The notes: a model not told the origin generated them from the letters alone. Shown: positions 28,571-54,064, counted from the first letter of the stretch. The stretch: 64,000 bases of DNA from a virus (IMGVR_UViG_3300028832_000129:11528-75527); one strand, 5' to 3'. A program made the numbers and translations.

Positions 28571-28604
28571 TTCACTTTTTTCGCGGTACCCGCCTCCACG
28601 CCAG

Positions 28605-28624
28605 GAGTTTTTTGCTATATTTGG
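28605..28624 (+). promoter_or_regulatory. Phage promoter motif TTTTTTGCTATATTTGG directly upstream of a tRNA.
   Basis: Exact motif. tRNA-Gly(CCC) begins 8 nt downstream. Confidence 0.55.
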
Positions 28625-28631
28625 TATATCA

Positions 28632-28704
28632 GCGGGAATAGCTCAGTTGGTAGAGCGCGACCTTCCCAAGGTCGATGTCGAGGGTTCGAGCCCCTTTTCC
28701 CGCT
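28632..28704 (+). tRNA. tRNA-Gly(CCC).
   Basis: GCGGGAATAGCTCAGTTGGTAGAGCG..CGACC-TTCCCAA-GGTCG..GGTTCGAGCC..TTCCCGC. Clean cloverleaf. The CCA is not encoded. Confidence 0.85.
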
Positions 28705-28964
28705 CTAACAAGTTGGCGTACATGCGCCGCATCACGCGGAGTTGGCCATTCGAATGTTCCTAGGTTCGAAACTGGGGACAGGAGAGCCACCTAGGGCTCC
28801 GTGAAACGTGCGGGTCGGGCCTGGCGCTGCGCTTGGTTTGATGCTGTCCTGTGCTGTGGCCCTCCGCGAGGAGTCTAAACGGCTTGCGGTGCGGTCGACG
28901 GTGTCGCCTCCGTCGCGGTGCGTGCAAAACCCGGTCTGCACAGATGTTGCGCATGAACGCCAAC

Positions 28965-28980
28965 TTTTTGCTATATTTGG
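28965..28980 (+). promoter_or_regulatory. Phage promoter motif TTTTTGCTATATTTGG.
   Basis: Exact motif ~60 nt upstream of the 29042 gene. Confidence 0.5.
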
Positions 28981-29041
28981 GGTAGGCCATACGTGCCTAC
29001 CCTTTATTATATTGTCAACACCATAACTATCAAGGTTATAA

Positions 29042-31648
29042 ATGAGCGAAAAGGAACTTGGCCCGGGAAGCGAGGGCGACGCATACAGGTACACCAAGAA
29101 GGTGCTTCTTTCCCTTCCGAACTTGAACGAAATCCGCCGCATCTATACCGAGATTGCGTTCAACAGGAATATATCGTCCTGGACCCGTGCATGCTACGAG
29201 GAACTCCGCAGGCAGTTCTTCCGTGACGGCCAGTGCAAGATTAAGTTCGCCCCGGGGCTTGCCCGTATCGCATACGGGGAGCTCCTCTTCGGTACGGGCG
29301 ACGAGGACTTCCGCCAGCTTGCCGACCTCCGCGACTTCGTGCGCATCATCTCTATCGCGCACTTTACAGAATTTACCCGCCACATCGCAATCGACGGCAA
29401 GGAACTCTCGTTCAAGGACCTCGTCGACCGCTTTGGCAGCACCGTGTCCGGTAACTGGAAGGAACTGAAGCGCGAGCTTGGCAAAATCCAGTACGGCCCG
29501 CGTCGATACAAGGTAATCTGGCTGGATTCGTTTGCCACTGCCAACAAGTATTACCAGTACACCGCCCCGCATAACTGGTGCCATCTAGGTTCCAAGAGCA
29601 TGTTCAAGTCGTATTCCTACAGCCGGAAGACCGATTCCAAGGGAAACTCCAGGATTTCCGTGGTGAAGCTGTACCTTGCCGTGCTTCCCGGTTTCGAGAC
29701 GATGACGGAAGACGACCCGCTGTATGGCGAGTCCATGCTCGGCATCGATATCGGTCCCGATGGCCGTCTCATGCACGTGAACAACCGCTGGAACCACGCG
29801 CACGACAATATCGACGAACGCAAGGGCGACAACAAGTATTCCGAGAGGGAACTGTCCGAACTCATGGGCGGCCCGTTCTATAAGCTTTGCCCTCCGTTCA
29901 GCAAGAGGGACTACCAGCACATCGAGAGTGTAATGAAACGCGCCCGCCAGAAGGACAACAGGGTATGCCTCAGCTGGGCAAAGAAGCTCGCCAACAAGAT
30001 AACCAATGCGGTGACTGCAAAGTGCAGTACTCGTGAACGCAAGTTCGTCGACGATAGGGATGGCCGCGCATACCGCACGGCGGTAATCGGTAATCGCGAA
30101 TGGATGCTTGACCCGGTATCCTATATCTCGGTCCCGGATATCCGTGAGAGCACCGGGGTTGCCGACAACCGCAAGGCTCTTGAATATGACTGGTATTGTT
30201 TCGATGAACTGCATTCGAAGAAGGGTCTCCGCTATGAGTCCGAAGGTCGCATCACTGTAGGCAACAGAGGAGTTGTCTATCACCCGGAGGGAGATACTGA
30301 CATCGATATGGATGGGGACATGGTTGAGGGCTGTGTACAGGACGAGGAAATCATTCCGGACCCGGTGTGTCTCAACAAGTTCATGCCGCTTACATCCATT
30401 GACATCGACCGTAACGGTCACGCAAAGGTGTACCTGTCTTCCGACGTGTACAAGATGAGCGACTCCGGCAACTACGACTCGTACGAGAGCCATGCCTATC
30501 AGCAGGCATGCGATAATTACCGTCAATGGCGTGCAGACACAATCGACCCCGGCGAGAACAAGCTGGACAAGGACGGAAAGTATGTCATGTACAGTGACGA
30601 CAATTACTGCGGCGTGTTTGTTGATGAGTACAGCGCCCTTGAGATGATTACCCCGCTTGGCTTTGACAAGACTCGCTGGAAAACTCTCAATGAAGGCAAG
30701 CAGAGGATTCTGGTGAACGACCTGGATGCCGATAGGAACTTTGTATTCTACAGTGCAAGGACTGTGCTGCATGCAATCCCCGCAGGCTGGCGTGTCCCTA
30801 CCTTGTTCGAGTTCTTGGGCATGGCTATTGCGAAGGGAGCCAAGTTCAGGTTCAGCCATGGAATCGGTGTATCCAAGGACGAGAACGCTGTCCTGGTTAC
30901 ACGTGAAGGTGTCGTGTCAAAGGAAGATGCGGTCGATGACCTGAAGGGCCTTGTATTCGAGGAACTTATTGAAGGCAAGATTGAACGCAAGTACGATACC
31001 CAGACGACGAATGCGTTGCGTGAGCGTATCACTGCTGCACCCAGGATAGTTGATGCCGGGCAGGACGCGGATGAAGACATCGAGGAAACCGTTGAAGACC
31101 CGGGAGATACGGACGATGCACAGCAACGGCAGCCGCAGCAAGATGACGGCTTCGGGTTTGACCTCAACTCTGCAGTACCTCCCCTGAATATCCGTCTTCC
31201 GGCTATGGAATTCGCAATGAAAAAGTTCGGGTTCGCATTCCCGGAAGAGATTAGGCAAGAGGCCAAGCCGTTCGCTATTGATGAAGCCACGCCGATGCTT
31301 GCAAGGCCTATCCTCCTGTCTCTCGACGGAGTGGACAAGATGAATGAAACAGAGGTAAAGAAGTTCTGCCGCAAGTTCGGGAAGGATGGTTCCTTCAAGT
31401 ATTGGCATGACGATGACTATACGGAAGAACTGGAAAATGCCGTGCATGACCTTCTTGACGCAGTAGATGCCGAGACTGCACACGCAAATGGTGCGGATGA
31501 TGTCCCAAAGAAACCGTATGCGTGCGCTACCTGGAGCGAATCCGACAATACGTTTACCATTTCGGTAAAGGACCGGTTCGACACGAGCGACAGTTACTTC
31601 ATGCTCTACTGCGTGAAGGACAGCAAGCAACTGATGCCTACCATTTAG
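29042..31648 (+). CDS. FISUMP-domain protein, paralog 2, 868 aa.
   Basis: N-terminal ~300 aa collinear with 24462..25922 (RIAYGELLFG, NNRWNHAHD, KLCPPF). Internal FISUMP-like segment (AGWRVPTLFEFLGMAIAKGAKFRF). Acidic Gln/Asp-rich C-terminal region. Confidence 0.6.
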   Translation: MSEKELGPGSEGDAYRYTKKVLLSLPNLNEIRRIYTEIAFNRNISSWTRACYEELRRQFFRDGQCKIKFAPGLARIAYGELLFGTGDEDFRQLADLRDFVRIISIAHFTEFTRHIAIDGKELSFKDLVDRFGSTVSGNWKELKRELGKIQYGPRRYKVIWLDSFATANKYYQYTAPHNWCHLGSKSMFKSYSYSRKTDSKGNSRISVVKLYLAVLPGFETMTEDDPLYGESMLGIDIGPDGRLMHVNNRWNHAHDNIDERKGDNKYSERELSELMGGPFYKLCPPFSKRDYQHIESVMKRARQKDNRVCLSWAKKLANKITNAVTAKCSTRERKFVDDRDGRAYRTAVIGNREWMLDPVSYISVPDIRESTGVADNRKALEYDWYCFDELHSKKGLRYESEGRITVGNRGVVYHPEGDTDIDMDGDMVEGCVQDEEIIPDPVCLNKFMPLTSIDIDRNGHAKVYLSSDVYKMSDSGNYDSYESHAYQQACDNYRQWRADTIDPGENKLDKDGKYVMYSDDNYCGVFVDEYSALEMITPLGFDKTRWKTLNEGKQRILVNDLDADRNFVFYSARTVLHAIPAGWRVPTLFEFLGMAIAKGAKFRFSHGIGVSKDENAVLVTREGVVSKEDAVDDLKGLVFEELIEGKIERKYDTQTTNALRERITAAPRIVDAGQDADEDIEETVEDPGDTDDAQQRQPQQDDGFGFDLNSAVPPLNIRLPAMEFAMKKFGFAFPEEIRQEAKPFAIDEATPMLARPILLSLDGVDKMNETEVKKFCRKFGKDGSFKYWHDDDYTEELENAVHDLLDAVDAETAHANGADDVPKKPYACATWSESDNTFTISVKDRFDTSDSYFMLYCVKDSKQLMPTI

Positions 31649-31664
31649 TACAAAGGAGTACCAT

Positions 31665-32015
31665 ATGCTTGTATATGTACCGAATTTTATTACCCTATTG
31701 CGACAGAGGTATTCTACTCTGAAGTTGCCTGGCGGCATCCATTATGATAATTCTGCAGTGCTGTGTCGCATGCAGTATGAGGTGCGCCTTGAGAAGAAGG
31801 TAGGCTCGAAAACTATCGTCGTGGAACTCGTGGCAAGATACGGTAAAGTCGAATTCCGGAAGCCGTTCACCGAGGATTTCTTGACAACTGGAGACCCGTC
31901 AAAGGTGATGGAGAAAATCAACGAGTATGCTGACGATGGATACGTCGTGTCGCATCAGACGCTGATGTACGGGGCGTCTGACAGCTGCGCCTATACACCA
32001 ACGAGTAGAATGTAA
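31665..32015 (+). CDS. Hypothetical protein, 116 aa.
   Basis: Intact ORF immediately after the paralog. Confidence 0.45.
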   Translation: MLVYVPNFITLLRQRYSTLKLPGGIHYDNSAVLCRMQYEVRLEKKVGSKTIVVELVARYGKVEFRKPFTEDFLTTGDPSKVMEKINEYADDGYVVSHQTLMYGASDSCAYTPTSRM

Positions 32016-32431
32016 CGAAAATTTTACACATTTTTCTTGCATTTTCCCTTGCCATTTCATTCGTTTTTATCTACTATTGCTATAAACATTACGTCAAAGG
32101 AATTAAAGATGCTAAAGCAACTCAACAATCTGTGCAAATTAACAGCTGCGGCCCAGGACGCACGTTATTTTGGCATTTTGGGTTTCGCAGGAAAAGCGGA
32201 GGCTGATGCAACTTAGTTCCAGGTAGACGAAAAGGTTTACGAGAGACGAAAAGGGCGGTTGCATCAGCAGGCAACCGCCCTTTCCGTTTAACCATTCGGG
32301 GGCGCATGTTCCAAGGTGGCGAATGATGCTGGCAGCATCGTTGAGAAGGATTCGATTTCCTTCGCTTCCATTAAAGCAAGGCTCGAGCAGCCTTGCGGTA
32401 GATTGACAGTTCGGATGCGATATGTTTTATG

Positions 32432-32504
32432 GGCCATTAGCTCAGTTGGTAGAGCGCCTGATTTGCACTCAGGAGGTCATCGGTTCGACCCCGATATGTG
32501 TCCA
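32432..32504 (+). tRNA. tRNA-Ala(TGC)-like. The acceptor stem is imperfect.
   Basis: GGGCCATTAGCTCAGTTGGTAGAGCG CCTGA-TTTGCAC-TCAGG ..ATCGG-TTCGACC-CCGAT. The 3' acceptor ATGTGTC pairs poorly with the 5' GGGCCAT. Preceded by the repeated 20-mer AGATTGACAGTTCGGATGCG. Confidence 0.5.
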
Positions 32505-32595
32505 GTATAATATGGGCTGCTAGAAGCAAGGGTAGCCAGCAACTACCCGATGGGCACTGCCTGGACAGATAGTAATCTATCCGTATTCCTAGGAA

Positions 32596-32697
32596 CCAAC
32601 CGTCGCCGTTGCCGGCGGCAGTGTTCCGACATGATGGGATAAGGACATTACGGGACTGGGGTCCATGCGAGGCCGGTTCGATTCCGGTGCGGTCCAC
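32596..32697 (+). ncRNA. tRNA-like element: canonical T-arm plus 3' acceptor, with the 5' partner unresolved.
   Basis: ...GCCGG-TTCGATT-CCGGT-GCGGTCC-A. No clean complementary 5' acceptor was found by eye. May be a degenerate or split tRNA. Confidence 0.25.
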
Positions 32698-32704
32698 TAT
32701 TTCG

Positions 32705-32775
32705 GGTCATTAGTTCAATGGTAGAATTCCCGGTCCGCATCCGGGGGATACCGGTTCGACCCCGGTATGTATCCA
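32705..32775 (+). tRNA. tRNA with an atypical anticodon loop TCCGCAT (anticodon CGC?). The acceptor stem is imperfect.
   Basis: GGGTCATTAGTTCAATGGTAGAAT..CCCGG-TCCGCAT-CCGGG..ACCGG-TTCGACC-CCGGT-ATGTATC. Shares the same acceptor oddity as 32432. Confidence 0.4.
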
Positions 32776-32791
32776 TTAGTTTGTTTGTATT

Positions 32792-32865
32792 CTCATCTAT
32801 ATCAACTGGTTAGATAGTCGCTCTGATAAGGCGGAGGTTCTTGGTTCGAGTCCAAGGGTGAGAAC
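32792..32865 (+). tRNA. tRNA-Ile(GAT).
   Basis: Acceptor TCTCATC/GGTGAGA, anticodon arm TCGCT-CTGATAA-GGCGG, T-arm CTTGG-TTCGAGT-CCAAG. Confidence 0.75.
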
Positions 32866-32872
32866 TATCATG

Positions 32873-32946
32873 CCACTGTAGCTCAGTCCGGTAGAGCGGG
32901 GGCCTGAAGAGCCCCGCGTCGAAGGTTCGATTCCTCCCGGTGGCAC
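32873..32946 (+). tRNA. tRNA-Phe(GAA).
   Basis: GCCACTGTAGCTCAGTCCGGTAGAGC G GGGGC-CTGAAGA-GCCCC ..GAAGG-TTCGATT-CCTCC-CGGTGGC. Confidence 0.85.
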
Positions 32947-33029
32947 TAAAATATGTTCGACAAATATATGAATGACATAATGAACAAAATTATGTATTTT
33001 TATATAAGGTTTATCGAAGAGTTGACAAT

Positions 33030-33767
33030 ATGAACTATAGACATATTTACTTAAACATTATCTTCCGTGCGCAAAATGATTATTTATCACGGTTAAAATT
33101 GAAGAAACATGGGATGTATTTTGAAAAGCACCATGTTCTCCCGCGGTCATTAGGTGGTAAAAATATCGCAAGTAATATAGTCTTATTGACGGGGAGAGAA
33201 CATTTTATTTGCCATTGGTTGTTGTTTAAAATGTTTAATAAGGGGACTATAGAGAGGAGCAAGATGCTATTTGCTTTATGGTGTATGAAATCGATTGAAC
33301 GCGGTCATACAGGAAGATATATTAATGCGAGAACATATGAATATATTCGGGCCGAGTTTGCGAGTATGGTAGGCCAGCTTAACTCAAAGCTGCAATCAGG
33401 TAGCCAAAATTCGCAATATGGAAAAATATGGTATACTAATGCATACACTGGTGCATCCACGTCATCCATAATTCCGTTAAAATATCCTTGGTATAAAGGC
33501 CGTAGACTGTTTCGCGGGGAAACAATGGTACTATTTAATAAAACCCAGCAATGTAGTATGATTCTGGCCAAACAAATATGGGACTTATTTCATAGTGGAA
33601 ACTACACATCATTTAGTGAGTTTACCAGCATGACTAATTTGCCGTTAAAGCGGCCTGGTATTCTGGCATTATTTAATAAATATGTGCCAATATCACGAAC
33701 TTTATGGAAGGATTCCACTAAGCCAAAACAGTCGGACAGTGCATATGTTGGACGATACTATAAATAA
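33030..33767 (+). CDS. HNH homing endonuclease.
   Basis: EKHHVLPRSLGGKNIASNIVLLTGREHFICH is an HNH motif. The gene sits in an AT-rich islet (32950-33890) inside the tRNA array. Confidence 0.75.
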   Translation: MNYRHIYLNIIFRAQNDYLSRLKLKKHGMYFEKHHVLPRSLGGKNIASNIVLLTGREHFICHWLLFKMFNKGTIERSKMLFALWCMKSIERGHTGRYINARTYEYIRAEFASMVGQLNSKLQSGSQNSQYGKIWYTNAYTGASTSSIIPLKYPWYKGRRLFRGETMVLFNKTQQCSMILAKQIWDLFHSGNYTSFSEFTSMTNLPLKRPGILALFNKYVPISRTLWKDSTKPKQSDSAYVGRYYK

Positions 33768-33892
33768 GAATTCCAGCATTATATAATAGGTATTAATATA
33801 TTTAGGGTGAATGTCACGATGAACGCAGCGTGTCATCCCGTAATACTGACTCGTTTGACTAACCAATATAAGTTTAACCCAGTAATTATTAT

Positions 33893-33965
33893 TCCACCTT
33901 AGCTCAGTTGGTAGAGCACCCGACTGTTAATCGGGTCGTCCCTGGTTCGAGTCCAGGAGGTGGAG
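33893..33965 (+). tRNA. tRNA-Asn(GTT).
   Basis: TCCACCTTAGCTCAGTTGGTAGAGCA CCCGA-CTGTTAA-TCGGG..CCTGG-TTCGAGT-CCAGG-AGGTGGA. Confidence 0.85.
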
Positions 33966-33969
33966 CTAT

Positions 33970-34055
33970 GCCGGTTTCGCCTAGCGGTCAATGGCAGGAG
34001 GCTGTAACCCTCCCGTTCTCACGAACTTCCGGTGGTTCGAATCCATCAGCCGGCA
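33970..34055 (+). tRNA. tRNA-Tyr(GTA), class II with a long variable arm.
   Basis: Acceptor GCCGGTT/AGCCGGC. Anticodon arm GGAGG-CTGTAAC-CCTCC. Variable stem-loop CGTTC-TCAC-GAAC. Confidence 0.8.
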
Positions 34056-34069
34056 CTATATATTCTTAT

Positions 34070-34144
34070 GCGGCATTAGCTCAGTTGGCTTAGAGCGCAA
34101 CCTTGCCATGGTTGAGGTCACGAGTTCGATTCTCGTATGCCGCT
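34070..34144 (+). tRNA. tRNA-Gly(GCC).
   Basis: GCGGCATTAGCTCAGTTGGCTTAGAGCG CAACC-TTGCCAT-GGTTG..ACGAG-TTCGATT-CTCGT-ATGCCGC. Confidence 0.85.
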
Positions 34145-34147
34145 TAC

Positions 34148-34220
34148 TGCCCGTTCGCCAAGTTGGTAAGGCACACGACTCTGACTCGCGCATTCGGTGG
34201 TTCGAGTCCATCACGGGCAA
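34148..34220 (+). tRNA. tRNA-Gln(CTG).
   Basis: Very close to the E. coli tRNA-Gln architecture: TGCCCGTTCGCCAAGTTGGTAAGGCA CACGA-CTCTGAC-TCGCG CATTC GGTGG-TTCGAGT-CCATC ACGGGCA. Confidence 0.75.
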
Positions 34221-34224
34221 CTAC

Positions 34225-34304
34225 CTCGACGTGGGGGAACTGGTAGACCCGCCGGCTTCAGGAGCCGGTGCATTTGCGTGCAAGTCCGAGTCTTGCCGTC
34301 GAGA
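34225..34304 (+). tRNA. tRNA-Leu(CAG).
   Basis: Acceptor CTCGACG/CGTCGAG. Anticodon arm CCGGC-TTCAGGA-GCCGG. T-arm GCAAG-TCCGAGT-CTTGC. Extra arm present. Confidence 0.75.
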
Positions 34305-34317
34305 CTAATGGAAACTC

Positions 34318-34401
34318 CGGCGATTGCTGGAATAGGTAGACAACCCGGTCTTAAAAACCGGGGCACTTGCGTGCGTATCGGTTCGAGCCCGATATCGCCG
34401 A
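34318..34401 (+). tRNA. tRNA-Leu(TAA).
   Basis: Acceptor CGGCGAT/ATCGCCG. Anticodon arm CCCGG-TCTTAAA-CCGGG. Long variable arm. T-arm ATCGG-TTCGAGC-CCGAT. Confidence 0.8.
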
Positions 34402-34485
34402 TAGGAGGTACACACGATGAAGAAGATTCTTAAACGCACCCGATTATGATGGTTGCAGTTGCCATGCTCTTATCAACTGCACTCT

Positions 34486-34557
34486 GCGGGTGTAGCTCAG
34501 AGGAAGAGCAACGTACTTTTAATACGTGGGTCGGGATTTCGAAATTCCCCACCCGCA
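34486..34557 (+). tRNA. tRNA-Lys(TTT).
   Basis: GCGGGTGTAGCTCAGAGGAAGAGCA ACGTA-CTTTTAA-TACGT..TTCGAAA..CACCCGC. Confidence 0.8.
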
Positions 34558-34561
34558 CTAT

Positions 34562-34633
34562 GCGAATATGGTGTAATTGGCAACACGACAGCCCTCCAAG
34601 CTGTAGTTTCCGAATCGTTGTCGGATATTCGCT
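34562..34633 (+). tRNA. tRNA-Gly(TCC) with a non-canonical T-loop.
   Basis: Acceptor GCGAATA/TATTCGC. Anticodon arm ACAGC-CCTCCAA-GCTGT. T-arm TCCGA-ATCGTTG-TCGGA has a perfect stem but an unusual loop. Confidence 0.65.
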
Positions 34634-34639
34634 TATCAT

Positions 34640-34715
34640 CCCCGGGTAGCCGAACTGGCATAGGCGGGCGATTCAAAATCGCCGACATCTGAAGGTTCGA
34701 TTCCTTCTCCGGGGA
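34640..34715 (+). tRNA. tRNA with anticodon CAA (Leu-type anticodon) but a short variable loop, which is atypical.
   Basis: Acceptor CCCCGGG/TCCGGGG. Anticodon arm GGCGA-TTCAAAA-TCGCC. 7-nt variable region. T-arm GAAGG-TTCGATT-CCTTC. Confidence 0.55.
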
Positions 34716-34725
34716 CTAAACGATT

Positions 34726-34799
34726 GGCGGCATAGCTCAATGGATTAGAGCGACAGATTTCTAATCTGTTGGTTCCAAGTTCGAGTCTTGGTGTCGTCA
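34726..34799 (+). tRNA. tRNA-Arg(TCT).
   Basis: GGCGGCATAGCTCAATGGATTAGAGCG ACAGA-TTTCTAA-TCTGT..CCAAG-TTCGAGT-CTTGG-TGTCGTC. Confidence 0.8.
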
Positions 34800-34803
34800 T
34801 AAT

Positions 34804-34874
34804 TGGCTTATGGTGTAGAGGTAGCACGGGTGGTTTTGAGCCATCAGGGCTGGGTTCGAGGCCTGGTTGGCCAA
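34804..34874 (+). tRNA. tRNA-Gln(TTG).
   Basis: Acceptor TGGCTTA/TTGGCCA with one mismatch. Anticodon arm GGTGG-TTTTGAG-CCATC. T-arm CTGGG-TTCGAGG-CCTGG. Confidence 0.6.
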
Positions 34875-34877
34875 TAT

Positions 34878-34959
34878 CCCGCAGTGGCGGAACTGGTAGA
34901 CGCGTGCGCCTTAGGAGCGCATGCCGAAAGGTGTGCAGGTTCGAGTCCTGCCTGCGGGA
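34878..34959 (+). tRNA. tRNA-Leu(TAG).
   Basis: Perfect acceptor CCCGCAG/CTGCGGG. Anticodon arm TGCGC-CTTAGGA-GCGCA. Long variable arm. T-arm GCAGG-TTCGAGT-CCTGC. Confidence 0.85.
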
Positions 34960-34978
34960 CTAAACAAAGGAGGAATAT

Positions 34979-35416
34979 ATGAGAAGACTGTTCATCATTC
35001 GCAAGGACCTGGACTTGTCCAAGGGAAAGCTTTCGGCGATGGTAGCCCATTGCGCCGAAGGTTTCTGGACACGCCTCATCTCCCGAAGTGCGACGAAGGA
35101 AGGCGACTCATACTCCGTCAAGTTCGAACTGGATTCAGCCACGATGGACGAGTATGTCCGCGGGCTGTTCGTTAAGACCGTGTGCGAGGCGAAGAACCTC
35201 ACCCACCTCATGAAGGTGGAGGAAGTCGCCAAGGGGTTCGGCCTTGTCGAGAATGTAGACTACGGCTTCATCGACGACGCGTGTCTTACCGAGCTTACCC
35301 CGGAGTCGACCGACGAGAACGGCAACGGCTACTGTAGGGTGGGCATCTGGTTCAGGCCGCTGCCGGACGACGTGAGCCATGCCCTCAGCAGGAAGTACCA
35401 GCTTTTCCGGGGATGA
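34979..35416 (+). CDS. Peptidyl-tRNA hydrolase, PTH2 family.
   Basis: Strong AAAGGAGGAATATATG RBS. N-terminus RLFIIRKDLDLSKGKLSAMVAHCAEG matches the Pth2 signature (..vvR.Dl.mgkGKiaAQ.aHAa). Collinear mid and C-terminal blocks. Embedded between tRNA genes. Confidence 0.7.
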   Translation: MRRLFIIRKDLDLSKGKLSAMVAHCAEGFWTRLISRSATKEGDSYSVKFELDSATMDEYVRGLFVKTVCEAKNLTHLMKVEEVAKGFGLVENVDYGFIDDACLTELTPESTDENGNGYCRVGIWFRPLPDDVSHALSRKYQLFRG

Positions 35417-35425
35417 CCCGGGATA

Positions 35426-35507: not shown

Positions 35508-35513
35508 ACTATA

Positions 35514-48119: not shown

Positions 48120-48171
48120 CGGTTGGATGGACTAAACTGAACCATACCGCAGAAAAGAAACGGTGTAGCTG

Positions 48172-49428
48172 ATGGAAGAAATGGTTATCAAGGAAGCGGC
48201 CGAGCTGCCGCAGGTTGCAGAAGGATTGAAGCTCGCCAGGGCCATTAACGACCTTGGTTACGAGGCATACCTTGTTGGCGGTTGCGTAAGGGACCTTGCC
48301 CGCTGGAAGCTCGGGCTGGACTCCGAGCCGGGAATCCACGACGTTGACCTGGCAACGAACATGCCGGCGGACGAGATGGCGAAACACTTCAGGACGGCCA
48401 GCAACAACGGCGAGAAGCACGGTACGATACTGGTGTTCATGGACGGCGAGCCTTTCGAGGTGACGAGGTTCCGTGCGGACGGGGACTACAGCGACGGGAG
48501 GCACCCGGACTCGGTGGCGTTCGCCGATACATTCGAGGAGGACACCAGACGGCGCGACTTCACTATGAACGCCATGGGCATGGACGCCGACTGCAGGATA
48601 GTCGACTATCACGGCGGAGTGGAGTCGATACGCTCGGGGGTCCTTTCTACCGTGGGCGACCCGGTGGACCGTTTCAACGAGGACGCGCTGAGGATACTCC
48701 GTGCAGGCAGGTTTTCCTCCAAGTTCGGTATGAAGCCCGACCTGGTGATGAACTCGGCATGCCACGCGCTTGCCACGCGGCTGAAGTTCCTTTCGATGGA
48801 GCGGGTACACGACGAGTTCACCAAGTGTTCCACGGCGAAGGCGTTCGCCGGCATGATGCACTTCCTCGAGGACGGCATAGGCAAGGTGCTATCCGACGCT
48901 ATAGACTGGAAGGCCGCCGCCAGGGCCGTGGACAACTGGGCGGTATACCACCAGAAGCCATGGGACACGGTGACGGGTATGGCGATACTGTTCATGTCGT
49001 GCAGGTCGATGGCCGAGTTCGAGATGCGCAAGTTCAAGTGCACCGTAGAGGAAATAGACGCGTACAAGTACGCCAAGGTCATGACGATGGAATACCAGTC
49101 CGGGAGGATGGACCTTGTCGGGATGGTGGACCTGGTCGAGAACCGCAGGTGGCCGTATTTCGTCGGCGTGGTCAACGCGTATGGCGGGAAGTGTGCAATC
49201 GACTCCGCGCAGGAGGAGAAGCTCCTGTCGATGGGGAGGTCGTACCCTACGCCCAAGGACATATCGTCGGCGATGAAGGATGCCGGTGTCGAACAGGGGC
49301 CGCTGTTCGGCCGGATACTCCGCCGGGTGCGGCTCTGCGTCTACAAGCGGAAGGTGGCTGGACGCGGCGCGGTAGACCGGGAGTATCTCGATAAACTGGT
49401 TGCCGAAGTAATAAAAGAGTGCAGCTAA
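48172..49428 (+). CDS. cca: tRNA nucleotidyltransferase (CCA-adding enzyme).
   Basis: Head-domain motifs LVGGCVRDL and HDVDLAT, plus the class II signature RRDFTMNA. 418 aa. Confidence 0.8.
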   Translation: MEEMVIKEAAELPQVAEGLKLARAINDLGYEAYLVGGCVRDLARWKLGLDSEPGIHDVDLATNMPADEMAKHFRTASNNGEKHGTILVFMDGEPFEVTRFRADGDYSDGRHPDSVAFADTFEEDTRRRDFTMNAMGMDADCRIVDYHGGVESIRSGVLSTVGDPVDRFNEDALRILRAGRFSSKFGMKPDLVMNSACHALATRLKFLSMERVHDEFTKCSTAKAFAGMMHFLEDGIGKVLSDAIDWKAAARAVDNWAVYHQKPWDTVTGMAILFMSCRSMAEFEMRKFKCTVEEIDAYKYAKVMTMEYQSGRMDLVGMVDLVENRRWPYFVGVVNAYGGKCAIDSAQEEKLLSMGRSYPTPKDISSAMKDAGVEQGPLFGRILRRVRLCVYKRKVAGRGAVDREYLDKLVAEVIKECS

Positions 49429-49432
49429 CCGT

Positions 49433-49717
49433 ATGACACCCGTCGGCATCGCCTGTTGGATAATGGGAATCCTTTCCGCAATTTCGTTCGCGTTCAACCT
49501 GTATCCGCAGTACCGTCTCGCGAAGAGGACACACAAGACAGGGCTCGCATACGGCTTCTTCGTACTCGCCTACGTAGGCAACATCGGGGCCGCCATATTC
49601 GTGCTCTACACGAACCTGCAGACCGGGGATTTCCAGTGGCCGCTGTACGGCAACTACGGGGTTGCGACCTACTTCACGACCCGCCTGTTGATAATGAGGA
49701 TAAGGTTCGGGAAATAA
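49433..49717 (+). CDS. Small membrane protein, 94 aa.
   Basis: Three hydrophobic helices (IACWIMGILSAISFAF, FFVLAYVGNIGAAIFVLY, YGVATYFTTRLLIM). Confidence 0.45.
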   Translation: MTPVGIACWIMGILSAISFAFNLYPQYRLAKRTHKTGLAYGFFVLAYVGNIGAAIFVLYTNLQTGDFQWPLYGNYGVATYFTTRLLIMRIRFGK

Positions 49718-49767
49718 TCCACGAAAGATGCAATTTTCTTACACGGAGGCCGTCACGGTAGCCGCGT

Positions 49768-49785
49768 CTTTTACTATATTTGCTG
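49768..49785 (+). promoter_or_regulatory. Phage promoter motif variant CTTTTACTATATTTGCTG, placed to drive the IscB leader RNA.
   Basis: ACTATATTTG core ~300 nt upstream of the iscB ATG with no ORF in between. Confidence 0.5.
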
Positions 49786-50088
49786 TAGGACCCATGGAGT
49801 AATCAACTACTCACCGGCTAAAGACTGGTGGGTTTGAGGAAACCCCTCGAACCCATAGTTGATTAGGCTAAGTGATAGGAGGCAACTCCTTGAACTACGT
49901 TGATAGAATCATGGCACCCCGGAATGTTTGTCCAAGTTCCCCGCTCTGCCGTATGTCATTAAAAGTCCTGATGGGTAGGGACGGTGTGGCATACCTAGTA
50001 AGTTCTTCCAACATTGCCGATGGACACCCACAGGGAGAAATCCCTGCATTACCTATTAAGTTAGGTTAAGACAAAAAGGAAACGATAG
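49786..50088 (+). ncRNA. Putative omega-RNA (OMEGA guide RNA) scaffold upstream of iscB.
   Basis: ~300-nt ORF-free, promoter-preceded leader with multiple stable stem-loops (e.g. AATCAACTA...TAGTTGATT; GGGTTTGAGGAAACCCC) immediately 5' of and abutting iscB. This is the canonical position of IscB omega-RNAs. Confidence 0.5.
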
Positions 50089-51357
50089 ATGGTATATGTT
50101 TTGAGCATTGATGGCAAACCGCTGATGCCAACCGAACGGTTTGGCAGGGTTCGCCGTCTGTTGAAAGCACGTAAGGCCTTTATCGTAAACTACCACCCGT
50201 TCACAATCAAGCTAACCTACAAGTGTCCCGACCGGACACAGGAGGTATCACTGGGTGTAGATGCAGGCAGCAAGCACGTAGGCCTGTCTGCTACCACAAA
50301 GAAGAAAGTATTGTTCGAGGCTCAACTGGAATTACGGAATGACATCGTAAAGAAGCTGGCTACCAGACGCGAGTTCCGTAGGACTAGACGCTACCGGAAA
50401 ACTAGATATCGTAAAGATAGATTTCTTAACCGTACCAAGAAGGAAGGATGGCTCGCTCCATCTGTTAAGCACAAGGTATGGGCACACCTATGGAACATCG
50501 TTAGAATCAAACGAATACTGCCTATAAGCAAGATAACCATAGAGGTGGCACAGTTCGATACCCAGTTGCTCAAGGCTCAAGAACTAGGCTTGCCGGTACC
50601 CCAAGGCACGGACTACCAGAGAGGCGAACAGCTTGGATTCTGGAATGTAAGGGAGTACGTGCTGTTCCGTGATGACCACAAATGCCAATGCTGCAAGGGA
50701 AAGTCGGGAGATTCCGTTCTCAACGTGCATCATATAGAGTCTCGGAAGACCGGAGGGAATGCGCCCAACAACCTTGTGACTCTTTGTGAGACTTGCCACA
50801 AGAAATATCATAAGGGTGAAATCAGGCTCCCTGCATCTATCAGGCGTGGTGCAAGTTATAAGGATGCTGCATTTATGGGCATTATCCGAAAGGAAGTATA
50901 CCGAATGTCTCGGATAGTGAACAATACGCTTACATGTCCTGTAGACATTACCTATGGCTACATCACCAAGAATACCAGAATCCGGTGTGGATTGCCTAAA
51001 GAACATACTATTGATGCTAGATGCATCAGCGGAAATCCGATGGCTAAAAGCAATGGAACAACTTATATAATTAAGCCTTTGAGACACAATAACCGACAGC
51101 TACACAAGGCATCTATCTTATCTGGAGGCATACGTAAGAACAACCAGGCTCCTAAAGAAGTGTTCGGTTTCCGCATTATGGATACCGTACTATACAATGG
51201 ACAGGTATGCTATGTCAATGGCCGTAGGGCGTCCGGCTATTTCTCCCTGGTAGATATCTACGGGAAAGTTTTAACCAACTCTGTCAGTTACAGGAAACTG
51301 GCCAGAATCAACCACAATAACTACATCATAGGAGGCGCAATTCCTCTCACCCACTAA
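50089..51357 (+). CDS. iscB: IscB, RNA-guided RuvC/HNH nuclease (OMEGA system; IS200/IS605-type Cas9 ancestor).
   Basis: N-terminal PLMP domain MVYVLSIDGKPLMPTERFGRVRRLLKARKAFIV. RuvC-I LGVDAGSKHVGLS. Arg-rich bridge RREFRRTRRYRKTRYRKDR. RuvC-II ITIEVAQFD. HNH CQCCKG...VHHIESRKTGGNAPNNLVTLCETCHKKYH. RuvC-III HTIDARCISGN. 422 aa. Confidence 0.85.
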   Translation: MVYVLSIDGKPLMPTERFGRVRRLLKARKAFIVNYHPFTIKLTYKCPDRTQEVSLGVDAGSKHVGLSATTKKKVLFEAQLELRNDIVKKLATRREFRRTRRYRKTRYRKDRFLNRTKKEGWLAPSVKHKVWAHLWNIVRIKRILPISKITIEVAQFDTQLLKAQELGLPVPQGTDYQRGEQLGFWNVREYVLFRDDHKCQCCKGKSGDSVLNVHHIESRKTGGNAPNNLVTLCETCHKKYHKGEIRLPASIRRGASYKDAAFMGIIRKEVYRMSRIVNNTLTCPVDITYGYITKNTRIRCGLPKEHTIDARCISGNPMAKSNGTTYIIKPLRHNNRQLHKASILSGGIRKNNQAPKEVFGFRIMDTVLYNGQVCYVNGRRASGYFSLVDIYGKVLTNSVSYRKLARINHNNYIIGGAIPLTH

Positions 51358-51363
51358 AGATGG

Positions 51364-52650
51364 GTGAGTTTCCTTGCGTATTTTATTATGATTACTGACA
51401 AGACAGGCATAAGCTTTGCCCAGTTCTTTGACTTGATGGTATGCTGCGGCCCTGATTCGGCCGTATTGCTGGAAGGTGACACCGGTATAGGCAAGACGAC
51501 CATTTCCAGGTACTTCGCAGAGAAGATTGTGAAGCTTCCTTTCTGCGTGATACAGGTTTCCGAGAACACCGACATGACCGACGTGTTCGGGCTACCAGAC
51601 TTCGCCAACGGCCGCACCGTATACAAGCCGCCCTCATGGTATCTCGGGCCCGACACCAAGTGCGTGCTGCTCCTTGACGAGGTCAACCGTAACAAGACGG
51701 TCATGAAGGGCCTGATGCGTCTCGCCACCGACCACAGGATTGGCGACCTTACGTTACCTGACGGCAGCTACGTCCTTGGTGCAATCAACCCGGAATACGG
51801 CTCGCTCTACCAGGTCGTCGAGATGGACCCGGCACACAGGGCCCGTTTCCAGGTTGCACAGCTGAACCCGACCATGCCCGAATGGGTGAAGTTCGCCCGA
51901 GAGGAAGGGCTGCCGAACGTGGTAATCGAGTACGTCCAATCGCACGAACTCGACCTGGACACCTTCAAGAACCAGGAGAACGTGAACCAGGCCGAGGGAC
52001 AGTTCTACCACCACGTGCTGCCGTGCCGCCGCCAGTGGCACCAGTTCGCCAAGCAGGTCGTACGCGGCGAGAACTTCAAGGGCACCGGCATATCCCGCTT
52101 CGACCCGAAGCACTTCGACGACGCCGAGAACTTCATGTACGCGATGGCTGCAGGCCGTCTCGGCACCGGTGTAGCCGAGCGTTTCACCAAGTTCTACTAC
52201 AATTTCAAGTTCAGGAACGACGACTGCTGGATTACGGCTGAGCAGCTCCTTTTCGGAACGGACAAGGACTGGGCACCCGGCGGGAAGATGGTCAAGGAGC
52301 TCAAGCGGATGGCGGACAAGGATATCCCGGGGCTCACCAGTCTCGGCGAGGAGCTGCTCGACCTGACCGCACGCAACGAGGACAAGATGTGGAACGACTT
52401 CCACAGCGGTCCCAGCTCCACCGCGAAGGCATACGGGACCAACATATTCAAGTTCATGTACACCTGCCCGCACGAAGTCGTGTGCAGCCTGTACTATTCT
52501 AAGATTGCCCCGGCGAACCAGGAGGCCAAGCGCAGGAAGGCGCTGGCCAAGCAGGGAGTCGGCAAGGACGACGGGCCGAAGTGGGAGAACCTGATGTGTC
52601 TCGGGTTCCCCAAGCTGGCCGAGCTACTCAAGGACATAGTCAACCCGTAA
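51364..52650 (+). CDS. AAA+ ATPase, MoxR/AAA_5-like.
   Basis: Walker A GDTGIGKTT and Walker B VLLLDEVNRN. GTG start at 51364 (alternative ATG at 51388). 428 aa. Confidence 0.65.
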   Translation: MSFLAYFIMITDKTGISFAQFFDLMVCCGPDSAVLLEGDTGIGKTTISRYFAEKIVKLPFCVIQVSENTDMTDVFGLPDFANGRTVYKPPSWYLGPDTKCVLLLDEVNRNKTVMKGLMRLATDHRIGDLTLPDGSYVLGAINPEYGSLYQVVEMDPAHRARFQVAQLNPTMPEWVKFAREEGLPNVVIEYVQSHELDLDTFKNQENVNQAEGQFYHHVLPCRRQWHQFAKQVVRGENFKGTGISRFDPKHFDDAENFMYAMAAGRLGTGVAERFTKFYYNFKFRNDDCWITAEQLLFGTDKDWAPGGKMVKELKRMADKDIPGLTSLGEELLDLTARNEDKMWNDFHSGPSSTAKAYGTNIFKFMYTCPHEVVCSLYYSKIAPANQEAKRRKALAKQGVGKDDGPKWENLMCLGFPKLAELLKDIVNP

Positions 52651-52664
52651 CGAAGGAGAAAACG

Positions 52665-53096
52665 ATGCAGCAGGATGGACAGGCGGAAAACGCCAAGCCT
52701 ACCAGGGAAGAGATAATGGCCGACAGGGAGGCCATCAGGGCGAAGTACAGCAAGCCCGTTGCCGAAAGGTACGACGAGGCGTGCGACCGCGACGAGGACT
52801 ACGGCGCGAACATAGTAATGTTCGACGAAATGGAGGCCGCCATGGTCGGCACCACGGTCAACGCGGCCGGCGTAGTGGTGCCGGTGTACGAGCGCGAGCT
52901 GTGCATCAAGGCGCTCGCCAAGAAGTACATGGCGAGCGGCGACTACAAGGACGATGACGAGGCATACACCGCGGCTACCGAGTGGTTCGAGTTCAACACG
53001 GAGCGCACCCTTCCCTACCTGAAGGAACAGGCCCCGGTCATAATCGACGGGTTCTTGAGGGACGCCGGACTGTGGGAGGGCTTCCTCGATGAATAG
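52665..53096 (+). CDS. Hypothetical protein, 144 aa.
   Basis: GAAGGAGAAAACGATG RBS. Intact ORF. Confidence 0.45.
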   Translation: MQQDGQAENAKPTREEIMADREAIRAKYSKPVAERYDEACDRDEDYGANIVMFDEMEAAMVGTTVNAAGVVVPVYERELCIKALAKKYMASGDYKDDDEAYTAATEWFEFNTERTLPYLKEQAPVIIDGFLRDAGLWEGFLDE

Positions 53097-53634
53097 CACT
53101 ACGGTTTCGACCAAAGACGTTCTCCTGATGGCGTCGCGCCTCGGGTTCAAGCACGGGAAGAACGACAAGGGAATCCCGGCGTTGACCTATTCCTCCGCCA
53201 ACGGGTTCGTCATGGAGTTCCTGGTGCCGTGGCTCAAGGATGACGGTACCTACCTGTATGACCAGGTGTGCACCCAACTCAACGCGATGAAGACGTCGGC
53301 CAGGATGGACGAGGAAGTGTACGACTTCCTGCGGAACAAGGACAACCAGGAGAAGATTAACAGGGCGTGCCTCGACTTCGGCATGGTGTACGACAACAAC
53401 GACCACATGTTCTACTACGTGAAGGGCGGGAAGGCGCTGTTCGGCGTGGACCACGACTACATCGCGAGCCTGATATGCACCGGGAAGGCGAGCATCGACC
53501 ACCTGGACGACATGCTGGCCACTTTCCTCGACACGTCGGAGTTCGAACACGAACAGAGCGCCAAGGCGTCTGGAAAACAGCTTCTGGAAAAGGGAAAGAA
53601 GGGGAAGAAAGGTGGAAGAAAGAAAGCGGGCTAG
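53089..53634 (+). CDS. Hypothetical protein, 181 aa.
   Basis: Overlapping-start operon arrangement. Lys-rich C-terminus. Confidence 0.45.
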   Translation: MNSTTVSTKDVLLMASRLGFKHGKNDKGIPALTYSSANGFVMEFLVPWLKDDGTYLYDQVCTQLNAMKTSARMDEEVYDFLRNKDNQEKINRACLDFGMVYDNNDHMFYYVKGGKALFGVDHDYIASLICTGKASIDHLDDMLATFLDTSEFEHEQSAKASGKQLLEKGKKGKKGGRKKAG

Positions 53635-54064
53635 GATAGCGGTGGACTTCGACGGGACCCTCGCCAGGAAGTCATGGCCGTCAATCGACAAGGATACCGT
53701 ATGGAACGACGTGCTGTGCGCGTGGCTCCAGAAAAGGAAGGCCATGGGCGACTACGTCATGCTGTGGACCTGCCGGGAGAACTACGGGGGAATACGTTTC
53801 CCTGACCACGAATACCTCAACGACGCGGTCAGGATGTGCACCAGGCACATGCTGTTCTTCGACGGGGTCAACCGGAACGTCGGCGAGGCGTTCGGGGAGT
53901 ACCTGTCCGGGACCGAGAGGTATGGCAGGAAGCTATGCGCCGACATTTACATCGACGACAGGTCGCTCCCGTTCAGCCCGGACGGCAGGTTCGCCAGGCT
54001 CTACTGGAAGGTATACCTGTGGCTGATGGACAGGAAACTGGCCAAAATGGAGAAAATCGACTAA
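53612..54064 (+). CDS. HAD-superfamily phosphatase-like protein; possibly a polynucleotide 3'-phosphatase.
   Basis: N-terminal RIAVDFDGTLARKS is the HAD motif I (DxDGT), as in the T4 Pnkp phosphatase domain. 150 aa. Confidence 0.5.
   Translation: MEERKRARIAVDFDGTLARKSWPSIDKDTVWNDVLCAWLQKRKAMGDYVMLWTCRENYGGIRFPDHEYLNDAVRMCTRHMLFFDGVNRNVGEAFGEYLSGTERYGRKLCADIYIDDRSLPFSPDGRFARLYWKVYLWLMDRKLAKMEKID

Follow-up and report, generated by a model that had tools for sequence, protein, structure and literature searches.

Results

Gene content of the island

The stretch of DNA analyzed here, hereafter the window, is 64 kb long and comes from an uncultivated huge phage of rumen Fibrobacter, the main cellulose degrader of the rumen. 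A syntenic relative of this phage is represented by a 472-kb scaffold, and a megablast comparison of positions 28600 to 48600 with 50,697 deposited phage records returned no match. The window's 28.6- to 42.8-kb portion is a translation-support island. Its features and those of the adjoining DNA are as follows.

25985 to 28093: NAD-dependent DNA ligase (LigA) with adenylation, OB, and BRCT domains
28632 to 42799, plus strand: tRNA island, 34 tRNA genes of at least 40 bits for 17 amino acids, all co-oriented
33030 to 33767, plus strand: HNH endonuclease ORF (weak Pfam HNH/HNH_5 match, below gathering score)
34979 to 35416, plus strand: PTH2 peptidyl-tRNA hydrolase of the archaeal/eukaryotic type (Pfam PF01981, 38 bits; gathering score, 23)
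36381 to 36454, plus strand: atypical tRNA-like gene whose acceptor stem is rich in G-U pairs and whose anticodon loop has 8 nt (Rfam, 33.8 bits)
36580 to 36669, plus strand: atypical 90-nt tRNA-like gene with acceptor-stem mismatches (Rfam, 33.8 bits)
37372 to 38232, plus strand: second HNH endonuclease ORF, within the island (Pfam HNH_3, 25.2 bits)
38777 to 39138, plus strand: tmRNA (Rfam RF00023, 101 bits, full length over model positions 1-374; also ARAGORN)
39848 to 39924, plus strand: atypical tRNA with an extended anticodon arm (Rfam, 48.4 bits, and fold)
41125 to 41382, plus strand: acyl carrier protein (ACP) with a GADSLD attachment motif (Pfam PP-binding, E 1.2e-8)
42021 to 42494, plus strand: predicted stand-alone polynucleotide 5'-kinase (Pnk), 157 aa (Pfam AAA_33; P-loop GIPGCGKST)
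42519 to 42707, plus strand: 62-aa ORF between the kinase and tRNA-Ser(UGA), no Pfam match
42836 to 43669, plus strand: PptH-like dinuclear metallophosphoesterase (MPE), 277 aa (Pfam Metallophos; all five metal motifs intact)
48172 to 49428, plus strand: predicted class II tRNA nucleotidyltransferase (CCA-adding), HD-less (Pfam PolyA_pol head, 102 bits)
53612 to 54064, plus strand: small capless HAD phosphatase of the BT0820 family, with a DFDGT motif

The preliminary description had counted about 35 tRNAs and a tmRNA, which agrees with the 34 tRNAs of at least 40 bits, the two genes at 33.8 bits, and the single tmRNA found here. It had also placed PTH2, the CCA-adding enzyme, the stand-alone kinase, the phosphoesterase, the HAD protein, and LigA, all of which Pfam or NCBIfam searches recovered in the same positions.

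tRNAs and tmRNA

ARAGORN called 33 tRNAs and one tmRNA, all on the plus strand between 28632 and 42799. A default Rfam run recovered 31 of those 33 tRNAs along with one that ARAGORN had missed, and the remaining two appeared in a permissive run, for a total of 34 tRNAs scoring 40.2 to 68.7 bits with RF00005 (gathering score, 29 bits). All tRNA calls passed covariance-model scoring. The anticodons listed earlier match overall, except that there are two tRNAs for Ala and four for Arg; neither ARAGORN nor Rfam placed tRNAs for Val, Asp, or Trp in the island. Syntenic arrays occur in the related phages L001, L011, and L012. For the two low-scoring tRNA-like genes, the 33.8-bit scores were obtained by searching the gap alone, with the cloverleaf or call taken from relaxed ARAGORN; blastn showed 75% conservation with L001 for the stretch containing the 90-nt gene. 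The atypical tRNA at 39848 was missed by standard ARAGORN and has 84% identity to its L011 counterpart.

The tmRNA encodes the tag peptide ADNAFAYAVAA*, and the tag of its L001 orthologue is ANDNAFAFRAAA. A second, "permuted" tmRNA proposed by ARAGORN at 39044 to 39558 had no support from Rfam (about 23 bits; gathering score, 47). The HNH ORF at 33030, which lies between tRNA clusters and has a homologue in L011, is probably a mobile homing element.

Maturation and recycling functions

As had been stated in the preliminary description, the island's tRNAs lack an encoded 3' CCA. Reading of the 3' flanks found it in 0 of 34 tRNAs and likewise not in the tmRNA, whose 3' end reads ...CCTCCA-CGA so that CCA is not encoded, and the count across four related phages was 0 of 96. 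Directly after the discriminator base, T-A follows in 25 of the 33 ARAGORN-called tRNAs of the window; the values for the four related phages were 25/33, 23/35, 16/20, and 5/8 versus a background of 4-5%. The lack of CCA combined with U at position 74 is a known RNase Z signature. Such CCA-less pre-tRNAs are cut by RNase Z, after which CCA is added (PMC4810234).

By sequence, the product of 48172 to 49428 is a class II CCA-adding enzyme, with CCA- rather than A-adding specificity being a prediction. Its best NCBIfam model is CCA tRNA nucleotidyltransferase PRK13299 (216.9 bits; cut-off, 290) versus 128 for PcnB, and Pfam returned a weak RNA-binding-domain match below the gathering score and no HD domain match. 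The gene is conserved in L001, L011, L012, and L019. Because none of the 96 tRNAs encodes CCA, this enzyme is needed in any case, and its first explanation is the maturation of the tmRNA and the 34 CCA-less tRNAs rather than repair.

The PTH2 gene sits between tRNA clusters. Its product matches archaeal Pth2 AF2095 in the PDB (E 7e-5) without reaching NCBIfam equivalog cut-offs, and the L001 orthologue is 93% identical. Under simple wobble rules, the island's tRNAs cover 70.7% of codons.

Kinase, phosphatase, and ligase

The kinase lies within the last tRNA cluster and adjoins the MPE. Against PDB profiles, it matched the Clostridium thermocellum Pnkp (CthPnkp) kinase over 150 residues (E 4.5e-26), followed by PSTK (1.8e-19), Pnkp1 (2e-19), and T4 Pnk (3e-17), and NCBIfam assigned it to bacter_Pnkp (E 1e-9). 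NMP kinases matched at 1e-5 or weaker, mostly over the P-loop only. The protein carries a DxxR motif (D34, R37), D75, and R118; G12, G14, K15, S16, T17, D34, R37, and D75 are invariant, and R118 is nearly so. These profiles identify a true, full-length polynucleotide 5'-kinase of the T4 Pnk/CthPnkp clade and not a dNMP or nucleoside kinase, the alternative that the preliminary description had singled out for checking. A T4-type bifunctional Pnkp was rejected, given that the kinase and its homologues have no second domain and the HAD phosphatase is a separate gene. So was a bacterial Pnkp of the Pnkp-Hen1 system, the kinase having no central lambda-phosphatase-type metallophosphoesterase domain; nor did the window ORFs scanned contain a family match to the C-terminal ligase domain or the Hen1 methyltransferase.

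L001, L011, and L012 also have the 62-aa ORF downstream of the kinase, and the order tRNAs-Pnk-sORF-tRNA-Ser-MPE...CCA is common to L001, L011/L043, and L044. LigA is an ordinary DNA ligase. The earlier observation that the window has no RNA ligase is upheld by the ORFs scanned, none of which matched an RNA-ligase or RtcB family, and by negative tblastn searches with two phage RNA ligases. The HAD protein, encoded about 10-11 kb downstream of the kinase and MPE, weakly resembles Pnkp phosphatases. The contexts of HAD genes are mixed, and a polynucleotide 3'-phosphatase is a possible function.

The PptH-like metallophosphoesterase

The MPE combines a metallophosphoesterase fold with an intact dinuclear site. 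It is structurally of the PptH type and is not a known RNA end-healing phosphatase, although its sequence is only 17% identical to that of PptH with a marginal profile match (E 0.003). PptH is a diesterase that has no monoesterase activity on pNPP and has been described as unique to mycobacteria (PMC8557913). An Mre11/SbcD-type nuclease, which the preliminary description had raised as a competing identity and which would call for a capping domain, Mre11/SbcD as the closest fold, and a Rad50/SbcC partner, was rejected for the MPE. The protein is a candidate phosphodiesterase on a macromolecular end.

The genomic surroundings of MPE homologues suggest RNA repair on the one hand and CoA/ACP and ADP-ribose metabolism on the other. 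In independent phage lineages, homologues sit between Rnl1 and a PF09414 RNA ligase with gaps of 15 and 44 bp (L018), follow an RNA ligase at a distance of three genes, about 0.9 kb (L075), occur near Rnl1 and a Pnk fusion (L087) or near Thg1 (L007/L010 and L082), and abut a CCA enzyme (L007/L010). At least nine tRNAs were found within 10 kb at 8 of 45 non-redundant MPE loci. Neighbors at these 45 loci also included CoaD-like proteins (7), CoaE (3), and PARG (5), which were as frequent as RNA-repair neighbors. RNA-repair families accounted for 7 of 128 MPE neighbors, most of which have no annotated function. Since huge-phage neighborhoods are loose, adjacency is weak evidence. The related phage L012 retains the kinase and has no MPE.

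Discussion

Our results reveal a nearly complete phage-encoded tRNA life cycle, with genes for supplying tRNAs, completing their 3' ends, recycling them, and rescuing ribosomes, as well as for at least one true end-healing enzyme. We consider it fairly probable that the island joins tRNA supply, CCA completion, and ribosome rescue with the healing of tRNA ends. Phage tRNAs would be made as multi-tRNA precursors, with host RNase P cutting the 5' ends, an RNase Z-type enzyme cutting after the discriminator, and the phage CCA enzyme completing the cleaved tRNAs. They could then read about 71-82% of phage codons and sustain translation if the host tRNAs run short, are degraded, or come under attack, while tmRNA (with host SmpB) and PTH2 would free stalled ribosomes and recycle peptidyl-tRNA. 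During repair, the kinase would phosphorylate the 5'-OH RNA ends left by metal-independent tRNases, and a phosphoesterase (the MPE, the HAD protein, or both) would clear 2',3'-cyclic or 3'-phosphate ends. The CCA enzyme may also rebuild damaged acceptor ends, and sealing breaks in the anticodon loop would require a ligase from another part of the phage genome or from the host.

The preliminary description had gone further by matching the kinase, phosphatase, and CCA enzyme to T4 end healing and by reading the arrangement as a counter to tRNA-targeting defenses and ribosome stalling. That interpretation is partly supported here. By profile the kinase is a polynucleotide 5'-kinase, but several parts of the repair reading are weaker than claimed: the MPE has a mixed comparative context, the HAD protein is only weakly Pnkp-like, tRNA maturation is the first explanation of the CCA enzyme, LigA is an ordinary DNA ligase, and the phage has no known sealing enzyme. 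The general idea that such genes work against tRNA-targeting defenses had already been published for huge phages (PMC7162821, PMC7824862).

An argument can be made that the island serves tRNA supply and maturation only and that PTH2 and tmRNA maintain translation in general. The kinase, MPE, and HAD protein would then be unrelated auxiliary genes that share an early or auxiliary region by chance, and no tRNA would be repaired. Such an account fits the requirement for a CCA enzyme regardless of damage, the lack of a ligase among the window ORFs scanned, the heterogeneous contexts of the MPE and HAD genes, and the predominance of unannotated MPE neighbors. Yet the kinase falls in a polynucleotide-kinase clade in which every characterized match acts on nucleic-acid ends or tRNA, and it is kept in the tRNA array by tRNA-Ser across four relatives. 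Furthermore, RNA-repair families are several-fold enriched near the MPE compared with the roughly estimated 1% expected from random placement. We regard supply alone as rather unlikely. Somewhat less doubtful, though still on the unlikely side, is that the MPE has nothing to do with RNA and is a PptH-type phosphopantetheinyl hydrolase that strips 4'-phosphopantetheine from phage (41125) or host holo-ACP, after which CoaD/CoaE-type enzymes make CoA; the possible repair genes would then be the kinase and CCA enzyme only. The ACP, a possible partner or substrate of the MPE, is encoded 1.4 kb upstream of it in the window, L001, and L011, and L012 has neither gene. In L007/L010, CoaD (111.6 bits, above the equivalog cut-off) and CoaE lie 2-3 kb downstream of the MPE; L080 has the order MPE-x-CoaD-like-CoaE, L075 has a CoaD-like gene directly before the MPE, and the window itself encodes a CoaE-like kinase (56450-57202). 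Nevertheless, besides the distant similarity to PptH and the restriction reported for that enzyme, ACP orthologues were found only in L001 and L011/L043. Beyond the window's own clade, no ACP gene lies near the MPE in L044 or at any other viral MPE locus examined. The window has no phosphopantetheinyl transferase, and the tight Rnl1-MPE-ligase order in L018 is left unexplained.

Alternatively, the MPE could be an anti-defense "eraser" of phosphodiester-linked or pyrophosphate modifications, such as the nucleotides or pyrophosphate that AbiEii/MenT or CapRel/FaRel2-type toxins add to the tRNA 3'-CCA, or the AMP that Fic toxins attach to proteins, in which case the CCA enzyme would restore the tRNA end and no ligase would be needed. 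Toxins that act on tRNA 3' ends are known phage defenses (PMC9712102, PMC11559606, PMC10435456), and PptH itself hydrolyzes a phosphodiester carried by a macromolecule (PMC8557913). Of 20 loci with cellular homologues of the MPE (about 40% identity), 17 belong to Fibrobacter; the homologues occupy variable islands, next to Fic genes at 5 loci (three unrelated families) and also next to AbiEii/AbiEi-like pairs (weak matches), Schlafen-AlbA2, KAP NTPase, and RhuM; the abutting MPE and CCA genes of L007/L010 fit as well. However, these arguments are all contextual, the AbiEii match is below the Pfam threshold, defense islands contain many unrelated genes, the MPE has no PADLOC match, and classical end healing is the better explanation for its position next to RNA ligases. 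We think it quite improbable that the MPE is such an eraser. No less speculative is a broader proposal, that the PptH-like family of Fibrobacter defense islands and huge phages is an unrecognized macromolecular-end cleaner. Together with the CCA enzyme, and with Thg1 in relatives, it would provide ligase-independent repair or un-modification of toxin-damaged tRNA acceptor ends (cyclic phosphate, pyrophosphate, or added nucleotides), leaving Pnk for breaks sealed elsewhere.

The identity of the MPE matters because its family recurs by RNA ligases, Thg1, CCA enzymes, and Pnk, by CoaD/CoaE and PARG, and, in the host genus, by Fic and AbiE-like genes. Activity on tRNA ends would bring the phosphoesterase folds of RNA end healing to four and might provide a defense against tRNA 3'-end toxins; a holo-ACP substrate would make the MPE the first phosphopantetheinyl hydrolase from a phage.

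Comparison with known systems

Cluster C mycobacteriophages (Bxz1-like) carry about 30-35 tRNAs and a tmRNA in one genome, as does the window in its island, and the two also share a tRNA nucleotidyltransferase, which is annotated in Mycobacterium phage ScoobyDoobyDoo (one match). The lineage is unrelated and the host differs, the present phage has a genome about three times as large, and the window's array is interleaved with PTH2, Pnk, and the PptH-like MPE. Mycobacteriophage tRNA arrays are among the subjects of PMC5966550. In T4, kinase and HAD phosphatase form one polypeptide that works with Rnl1 in the repair of PrrC-cleaved tRNA-Lys, whereas the window encodes them as separate genes 11 kb apart, with a HAD protein of the BT0820 type and no Rnl1. 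The resemblance to the Clostridium thermocellum Pnkp-Hen1 system lies in the CthPnkp kinase domain, the best structural-database relative of the window kinase, and in gene order, as the metallophosphoesterase follows the kinase just as phosphatase follows kinase in bacterial Pnkp. The MPE differs from Mycobacterium tuberculosis PptH (Rv2795c) both in sequence and in a family context that includes RNA ligases, Thg1, CCA enzymes, and Pnk.

A parallel also exists with huge and jumbo phages, whose tRNAs, tmRNA, PTH2, CCA, and end-healing genes have been read as a counter to tRNA-targeting defenses (PMC7162821, Al-Shayeb et al. 2020; PMC7824862), and in which Pnk, HAD, a few calcineurin-like enzymes, CCA, Thg1, and PTH2 have been described as jumbo-phage RNA repair (Iyer et al. 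2021, PMC7824862). Shared with these sets are the large tRNA complement, tmRNA, CCA enzyme, Pnk, HAD protein, and calcineurin-like phosphoesterase, the replacement of bacterial Pth1 by PTH2, and the presence of Thg1 and Macro/PARG in relatives. What sets the window apart is its Fibrobacter-associated lineage with 54% GC, a stand-alone kinase inside the tRNA array, a phosphoesterase of the PptH-like subtype, and the lack of a ligase within 64 kb. This kind of toolkit is already published for huge and jumbo phages, and the window is a further, well-built example of it rather than a new type of system.

Results

Source phage and host

In a megablast search, 28600-48600 matched none of 50,697 deposited phage records, and protein homologues of the window were found on metagenomic contigs 200-470 kb long. 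The nearest relative (L001) is a 471,965-bp ENA scaffold that shares synteny with the window, with amino-acid identities of roughly 60-93%. Within the 20.8 kb examined, it carries 35 tRNAs along with a tmRNA. Further relatives include a 222-kb IMG/VR contig (L011/L043) and the loci L044, L019, and L012. Two large window proteins (24408-25922 and 29042-31648) contain the Fibrobacter-specific "Fib_succ_major" (FISUMP) domain, and one of them, 868 aa in length, lies within the tRNA island. They are a clue to host range and may be surface or receptor-binding proteins. Because of these proteins, and because 17 of the 20 cellular loci with a homologue of the window's metallophosphoesterase (MPE) belong to Fibrobacter MAGs from rumen and gut, we consider Fibrobacter very probably to be the host.

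The tRNA island and tRNA 3' ends

In the interval 28632-42799, ARAGORN called 33 tRNA genes and a single tmRNA gene, every one on the plus strand. At gathering score, the Rfam tRNA model recovered 31 of the 33, plus one gene that ARAGORN missed (39848-39924), and the last two ARAGORN tRNAs were recovered in a permissive Rfam run over 28000-43500. This brings the count to 34 tRNA genes, with scores of 40.2-68.7 bits (threshold, 29), so that the island of tRNAs with a tmRNA proposed in the preliminary description holds up under covariance-model scoring. When the 1-kb gap 36244-37273 was searched alone, two atypical tRNA-like genes also rose above the threshold.

RNA genes of note in the tRNA island
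36381-36454, plus strand: atypical tRNA-like gene, 8-nt anticodon loop, 33.8 bits
36580-36669, plus strand: atypical tRNA-like gene, 90 nt, poorly paired acceptor stem, 33.8 bits
38777-39138, plus strand: tmRNA, 101 bits, tag ADNAFAYAVAA*
39848-39924, plus strand: atypical tRNA-like gene with an extended anticodon arm, kept in L011

The three atypical genes may be decaying copies or, alternatively, odd decoders such as frameshift or suppressor tRNAs. Altogether, the anticodon set covers 17 amino acids, without Val, Asp, or Trp, and, under simple wobble rules, reads 70.7% of the 13,425 codons that make up 36 window genes; coverage is ~82% if the four U34 family-box tRNAs each decode all four codons. 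ARAGORN also reported a permuted tmRNA (39044-39558) that overlaps the genuine tmRNA at the latter's 3' end, but its Rfam score (~23 bits; gathering score, 47) indicates that it is probably a false positive. Extra candidates from relaxed ARAGORN settings (32300, 32508, 32614, 36270, 38521, and 41524) had no Rfam support.

As first described, CCA is not encoded by any tRNA gene in the window. The tmRNA gene does not encode it either, and it was encoded in 0 of 96 tRNAs when three related phages (L001, L011, and L012) were included. The dinucleotide T-A immediately follows the discriminator in 25 of the 33 ARAGORN-called tRNAs, against a background TA frequency of 4.5%, and does so in 23/35, 16/20, and 5/8 tRNAs of the same three relatives. 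This common pattern suggests a shared 3'-processing signal, which probably serves an RNase Z-type enzyme.

Proteins with proposed roles in tRNA maturation, end healing, and rescue

Profile searches bore out the protein assignments made from the sequence.

Protein genes considered
25985-28093: NAD-dependent DNA ligase (LigA) with the standard Pfam domain set
34979-35416: PTH2-type peptidyl-tRNA hydrolase (Pfam, 38 bits vs 23; archaeal Pth2 in PDB, E 7e-5)
41125-41382: acyl carrier protein (ACP), inside the tRNA island
42021-42494: P-loop kinase, 157 aa
42836-43669: metallophosphoesterase (MPE), 277 aa, metal motifs all intact
48172-49428: class II tRNA nucleotidyltransferase, PolyA_pol head domain, no HD-domain match
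53612-54064: HAD phosphatase, 150 aa, DFDGT motif
56450-57202: CoaE-like (dephospho-CoA kinase-like) P-loop protein, 15 kb downstream of the ACP gene

The nucleotidyltransferase scored 216.9 bits on the CCA-enzyme model vs 128 bits on PcnB, in agreement with its proposed role as a CCA-adding enzyme. It belongs to a conserved block (46029-54064), kept in five related contigs, that encodes a DUF2201_N-like 696-aa protein, the CCA enzyme, a PQ-loop membrane protein, a MoxR-like AAA_5 ATPase, two ORFs, and the HAD; the MoxR-type ATPase and the DUF2201 (VWA/metallopeptidase-like) protein are paired around the CCA enzyme. Between the PQ-loop and ATPase genes is a clean 1,582-bp insertion (49803-51384), consisting of a HEARO/omega RNA (49802-50031, 122 bits) and, after it, an IscB-type ORF (50089-51357, RRXRR and HNH). 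The insertion is absent from L001, where the flanks join at 16006/16007, and from L011 and L012. The neighborhoods of HAD homologues were mixed, with UDG and glycosyltransferases at one locus and PARG, NUDIX, and Thg1 at another.

No RNA ligase, RtcB, Hen1, Thg1, or SmpB came up when essentially all plausible ORFs of the window were scanned against Pfam, and tblastn with two phage RNA ligases likewise yielded no match in the window. LigA was rejected as the sealing enzyme, as its domain set is that of an ordinary NAD-dependent DNA ligase. PADLOC returned no match for the kinase, MPE, HAD, or PTH2. Elsewhere in the window, a patatin-like phospholipase on the opposite (minus) strand (23523-24431) matched the PADLOC "Effector Phospholipase" models PDLC00757/00758 (E 1.7e-33), which we take to be CBASS-type. 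Its GC3 is 0.42, compared to ~0.8 in neighboring genes, and no cyclase lies beside it; it looks like a defense-type effector recently acquired by the phage.

The kinase

A profile built from 25 homologues of the kinase aligned over its full length with the Clostridium thermocellum Pnkp kinase domain (E 4.5e-26), followed by PSTK (1.8e-19), Capnocytophaga Pnkp1 (2e-19), T4 Pnk (3e-17), and mammalian PNKP (7e-8). Small-molecule kinases, adenylate and dephospho-CoA kinases among them, matched at 1e-5 or weaker, mostly over the P-loop only, which argues against a dNMP or nucleoside kinase. Within the family, the P-loop, both the Asp and the Arg of DxxR, and D75 are invariant, R118 is nearly so, and all homologues are stand-alone proteins of ~157 aa, as the kinase-only reading had it. 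By these sequence features, 42021-42494 is a polynucleotide 5'-kinase.

PSTK was the top single-sequence PDB match of the kinase, and a tRNA-Ser always adjoins it: the order kinase, 62-aa ORF, tRNA-Ser(UGA) is common to L001, L011, and L012. Yet a selenocysteine role was rejected because the adjoining tRNA has the anticodon UGA (a UCN reader) rather than UCA, the kinase is without the C-terminal tRNA-binding domain of PSTK, and the profile ranks the C. thermocellum kinase well ahead.

Genomic contexts of the metallophosphoesterase

Searched against PDB as a single sequence, the MPE gave no match, and a profile search gave marginal matches only, so its structure had to be predicted. The reading as an Mre11/SbcD-type nuclease was rejected. 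For a census, we collected 79 viral loci with MPE homologues; 88 MPE-bearing viral and metagenomic loci formed 45 clusters at 70% identity. Genes were called by codon usage, and we scored the three nearest neighbors and everything within 10 kb.

RNA-repair links of the MPE were seen in several independent lineages, with L018, L075, and L080 being other huge-phage contigs. At L018 (6825-10207), Rnl1, MPE, and a PF09414 RNA ligase share a strand and are separated by 15 and 44 bp; L075 (6605-9447) has the order RNA ligase, CoaD-like gene, MPE; and at L087, 6 kb of sequence takes in Rnl1, a Pnk fusion protein, and MPE. Macro domain, Thg1, and MPE are followed by a convergent CCA enzyme at L007/L010, Thg1 is two genes 5' of MPE at L082, and one MPE neighbor bears a cREC cyclic-phosphate-processing domain. 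At least nine tRNAs occur within 10 kb at 8 of the 45 loci. The census also showed PARG directly upstream of the MPE at several loci.

Discussion

Our results describe a phage that supplies its own tRNAs and tmRNA, all CCA-less, and encodes PTH2, a true polynucleotide kinase, and a CCA-adding enzyme. RNase Z is known to process CCA-less genes with U74, after which CCA addition follows (PMC4810234, citing Pellegrini et al. 2012), so the phage CCA enzyme would serve first of all to mature the phage's own tRNAs once an RNase Z-type cut has been made. The tmRNA and PTH2 could clear stalled ribosomes and recycle peptidyl-tRNA. Ends left by tRNA-cleaving defenses would be healed by the kinase together with the MPE and/or the HAD; sealing would fall to a ligase from outside the window. 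Some bacterial CCA enzymes carry an HD phosphohydrolase domain. Because the phage enzyme is without one, a separate phosphoesterase beside it would be a reasonable division of labor.

We conclude that the MPE is a phosphodiesterase acting on macromolecule-attached phosphate, and that RNA-end healing is the best-supported reading for the module in the window. A serious rival is that the MPE acts on holo-ACP in the manner of PptH, the phosphopantetheinyl hydrolase of Mycobacterium tuberculosis. An ACP gene lies 1.4-3.2 kb 5' of the MPE in the window, L001, and L011/L043; CoaD-like genes are near 7 of the 45 MPE loci (that of L007 above the NCBI equivalog cut-off) and CoaE near 3, with the order MPE-x-CoaD-like-CoaE at L080 (10001-12971). 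Locus L044 has the MPE without ACP, L012 has neither, and the window yielded no phosphopantetheinyl transferase. More speculatively, the MPE might erase modifications made by toxins. Its Fibrobacter homologues (MAG contigs L023-L042) sit in variable islands where Fic genes of three unrelated families directly adjoin them at 5 loci, and where other neighbors include AbiEii/AbiEi-like pairs (weak matches), a Schlafen-AlbA2 protein, a KAP NTPase, and RhuM.

The RNA-repair repertoire of jumbo phages includes Pnk, HAD phosphatases, occasional calcineurin-like enzymes, CCA, Thg1, PTH2, and KptA/2H/Macro (Iyer et al., PMC7824862). With precedent for the toolkit published (PMC7162821, PMC7824862), the system in the window belongs to a known kind. 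We have not seen described a PptH-like MPE subtype with a double association to RNA repair and CoA/ACP, its near-restriction among cellular genomes to defense-type islands of Fibrobacter, or a stand-alone kinase wedged into a tRNA array.
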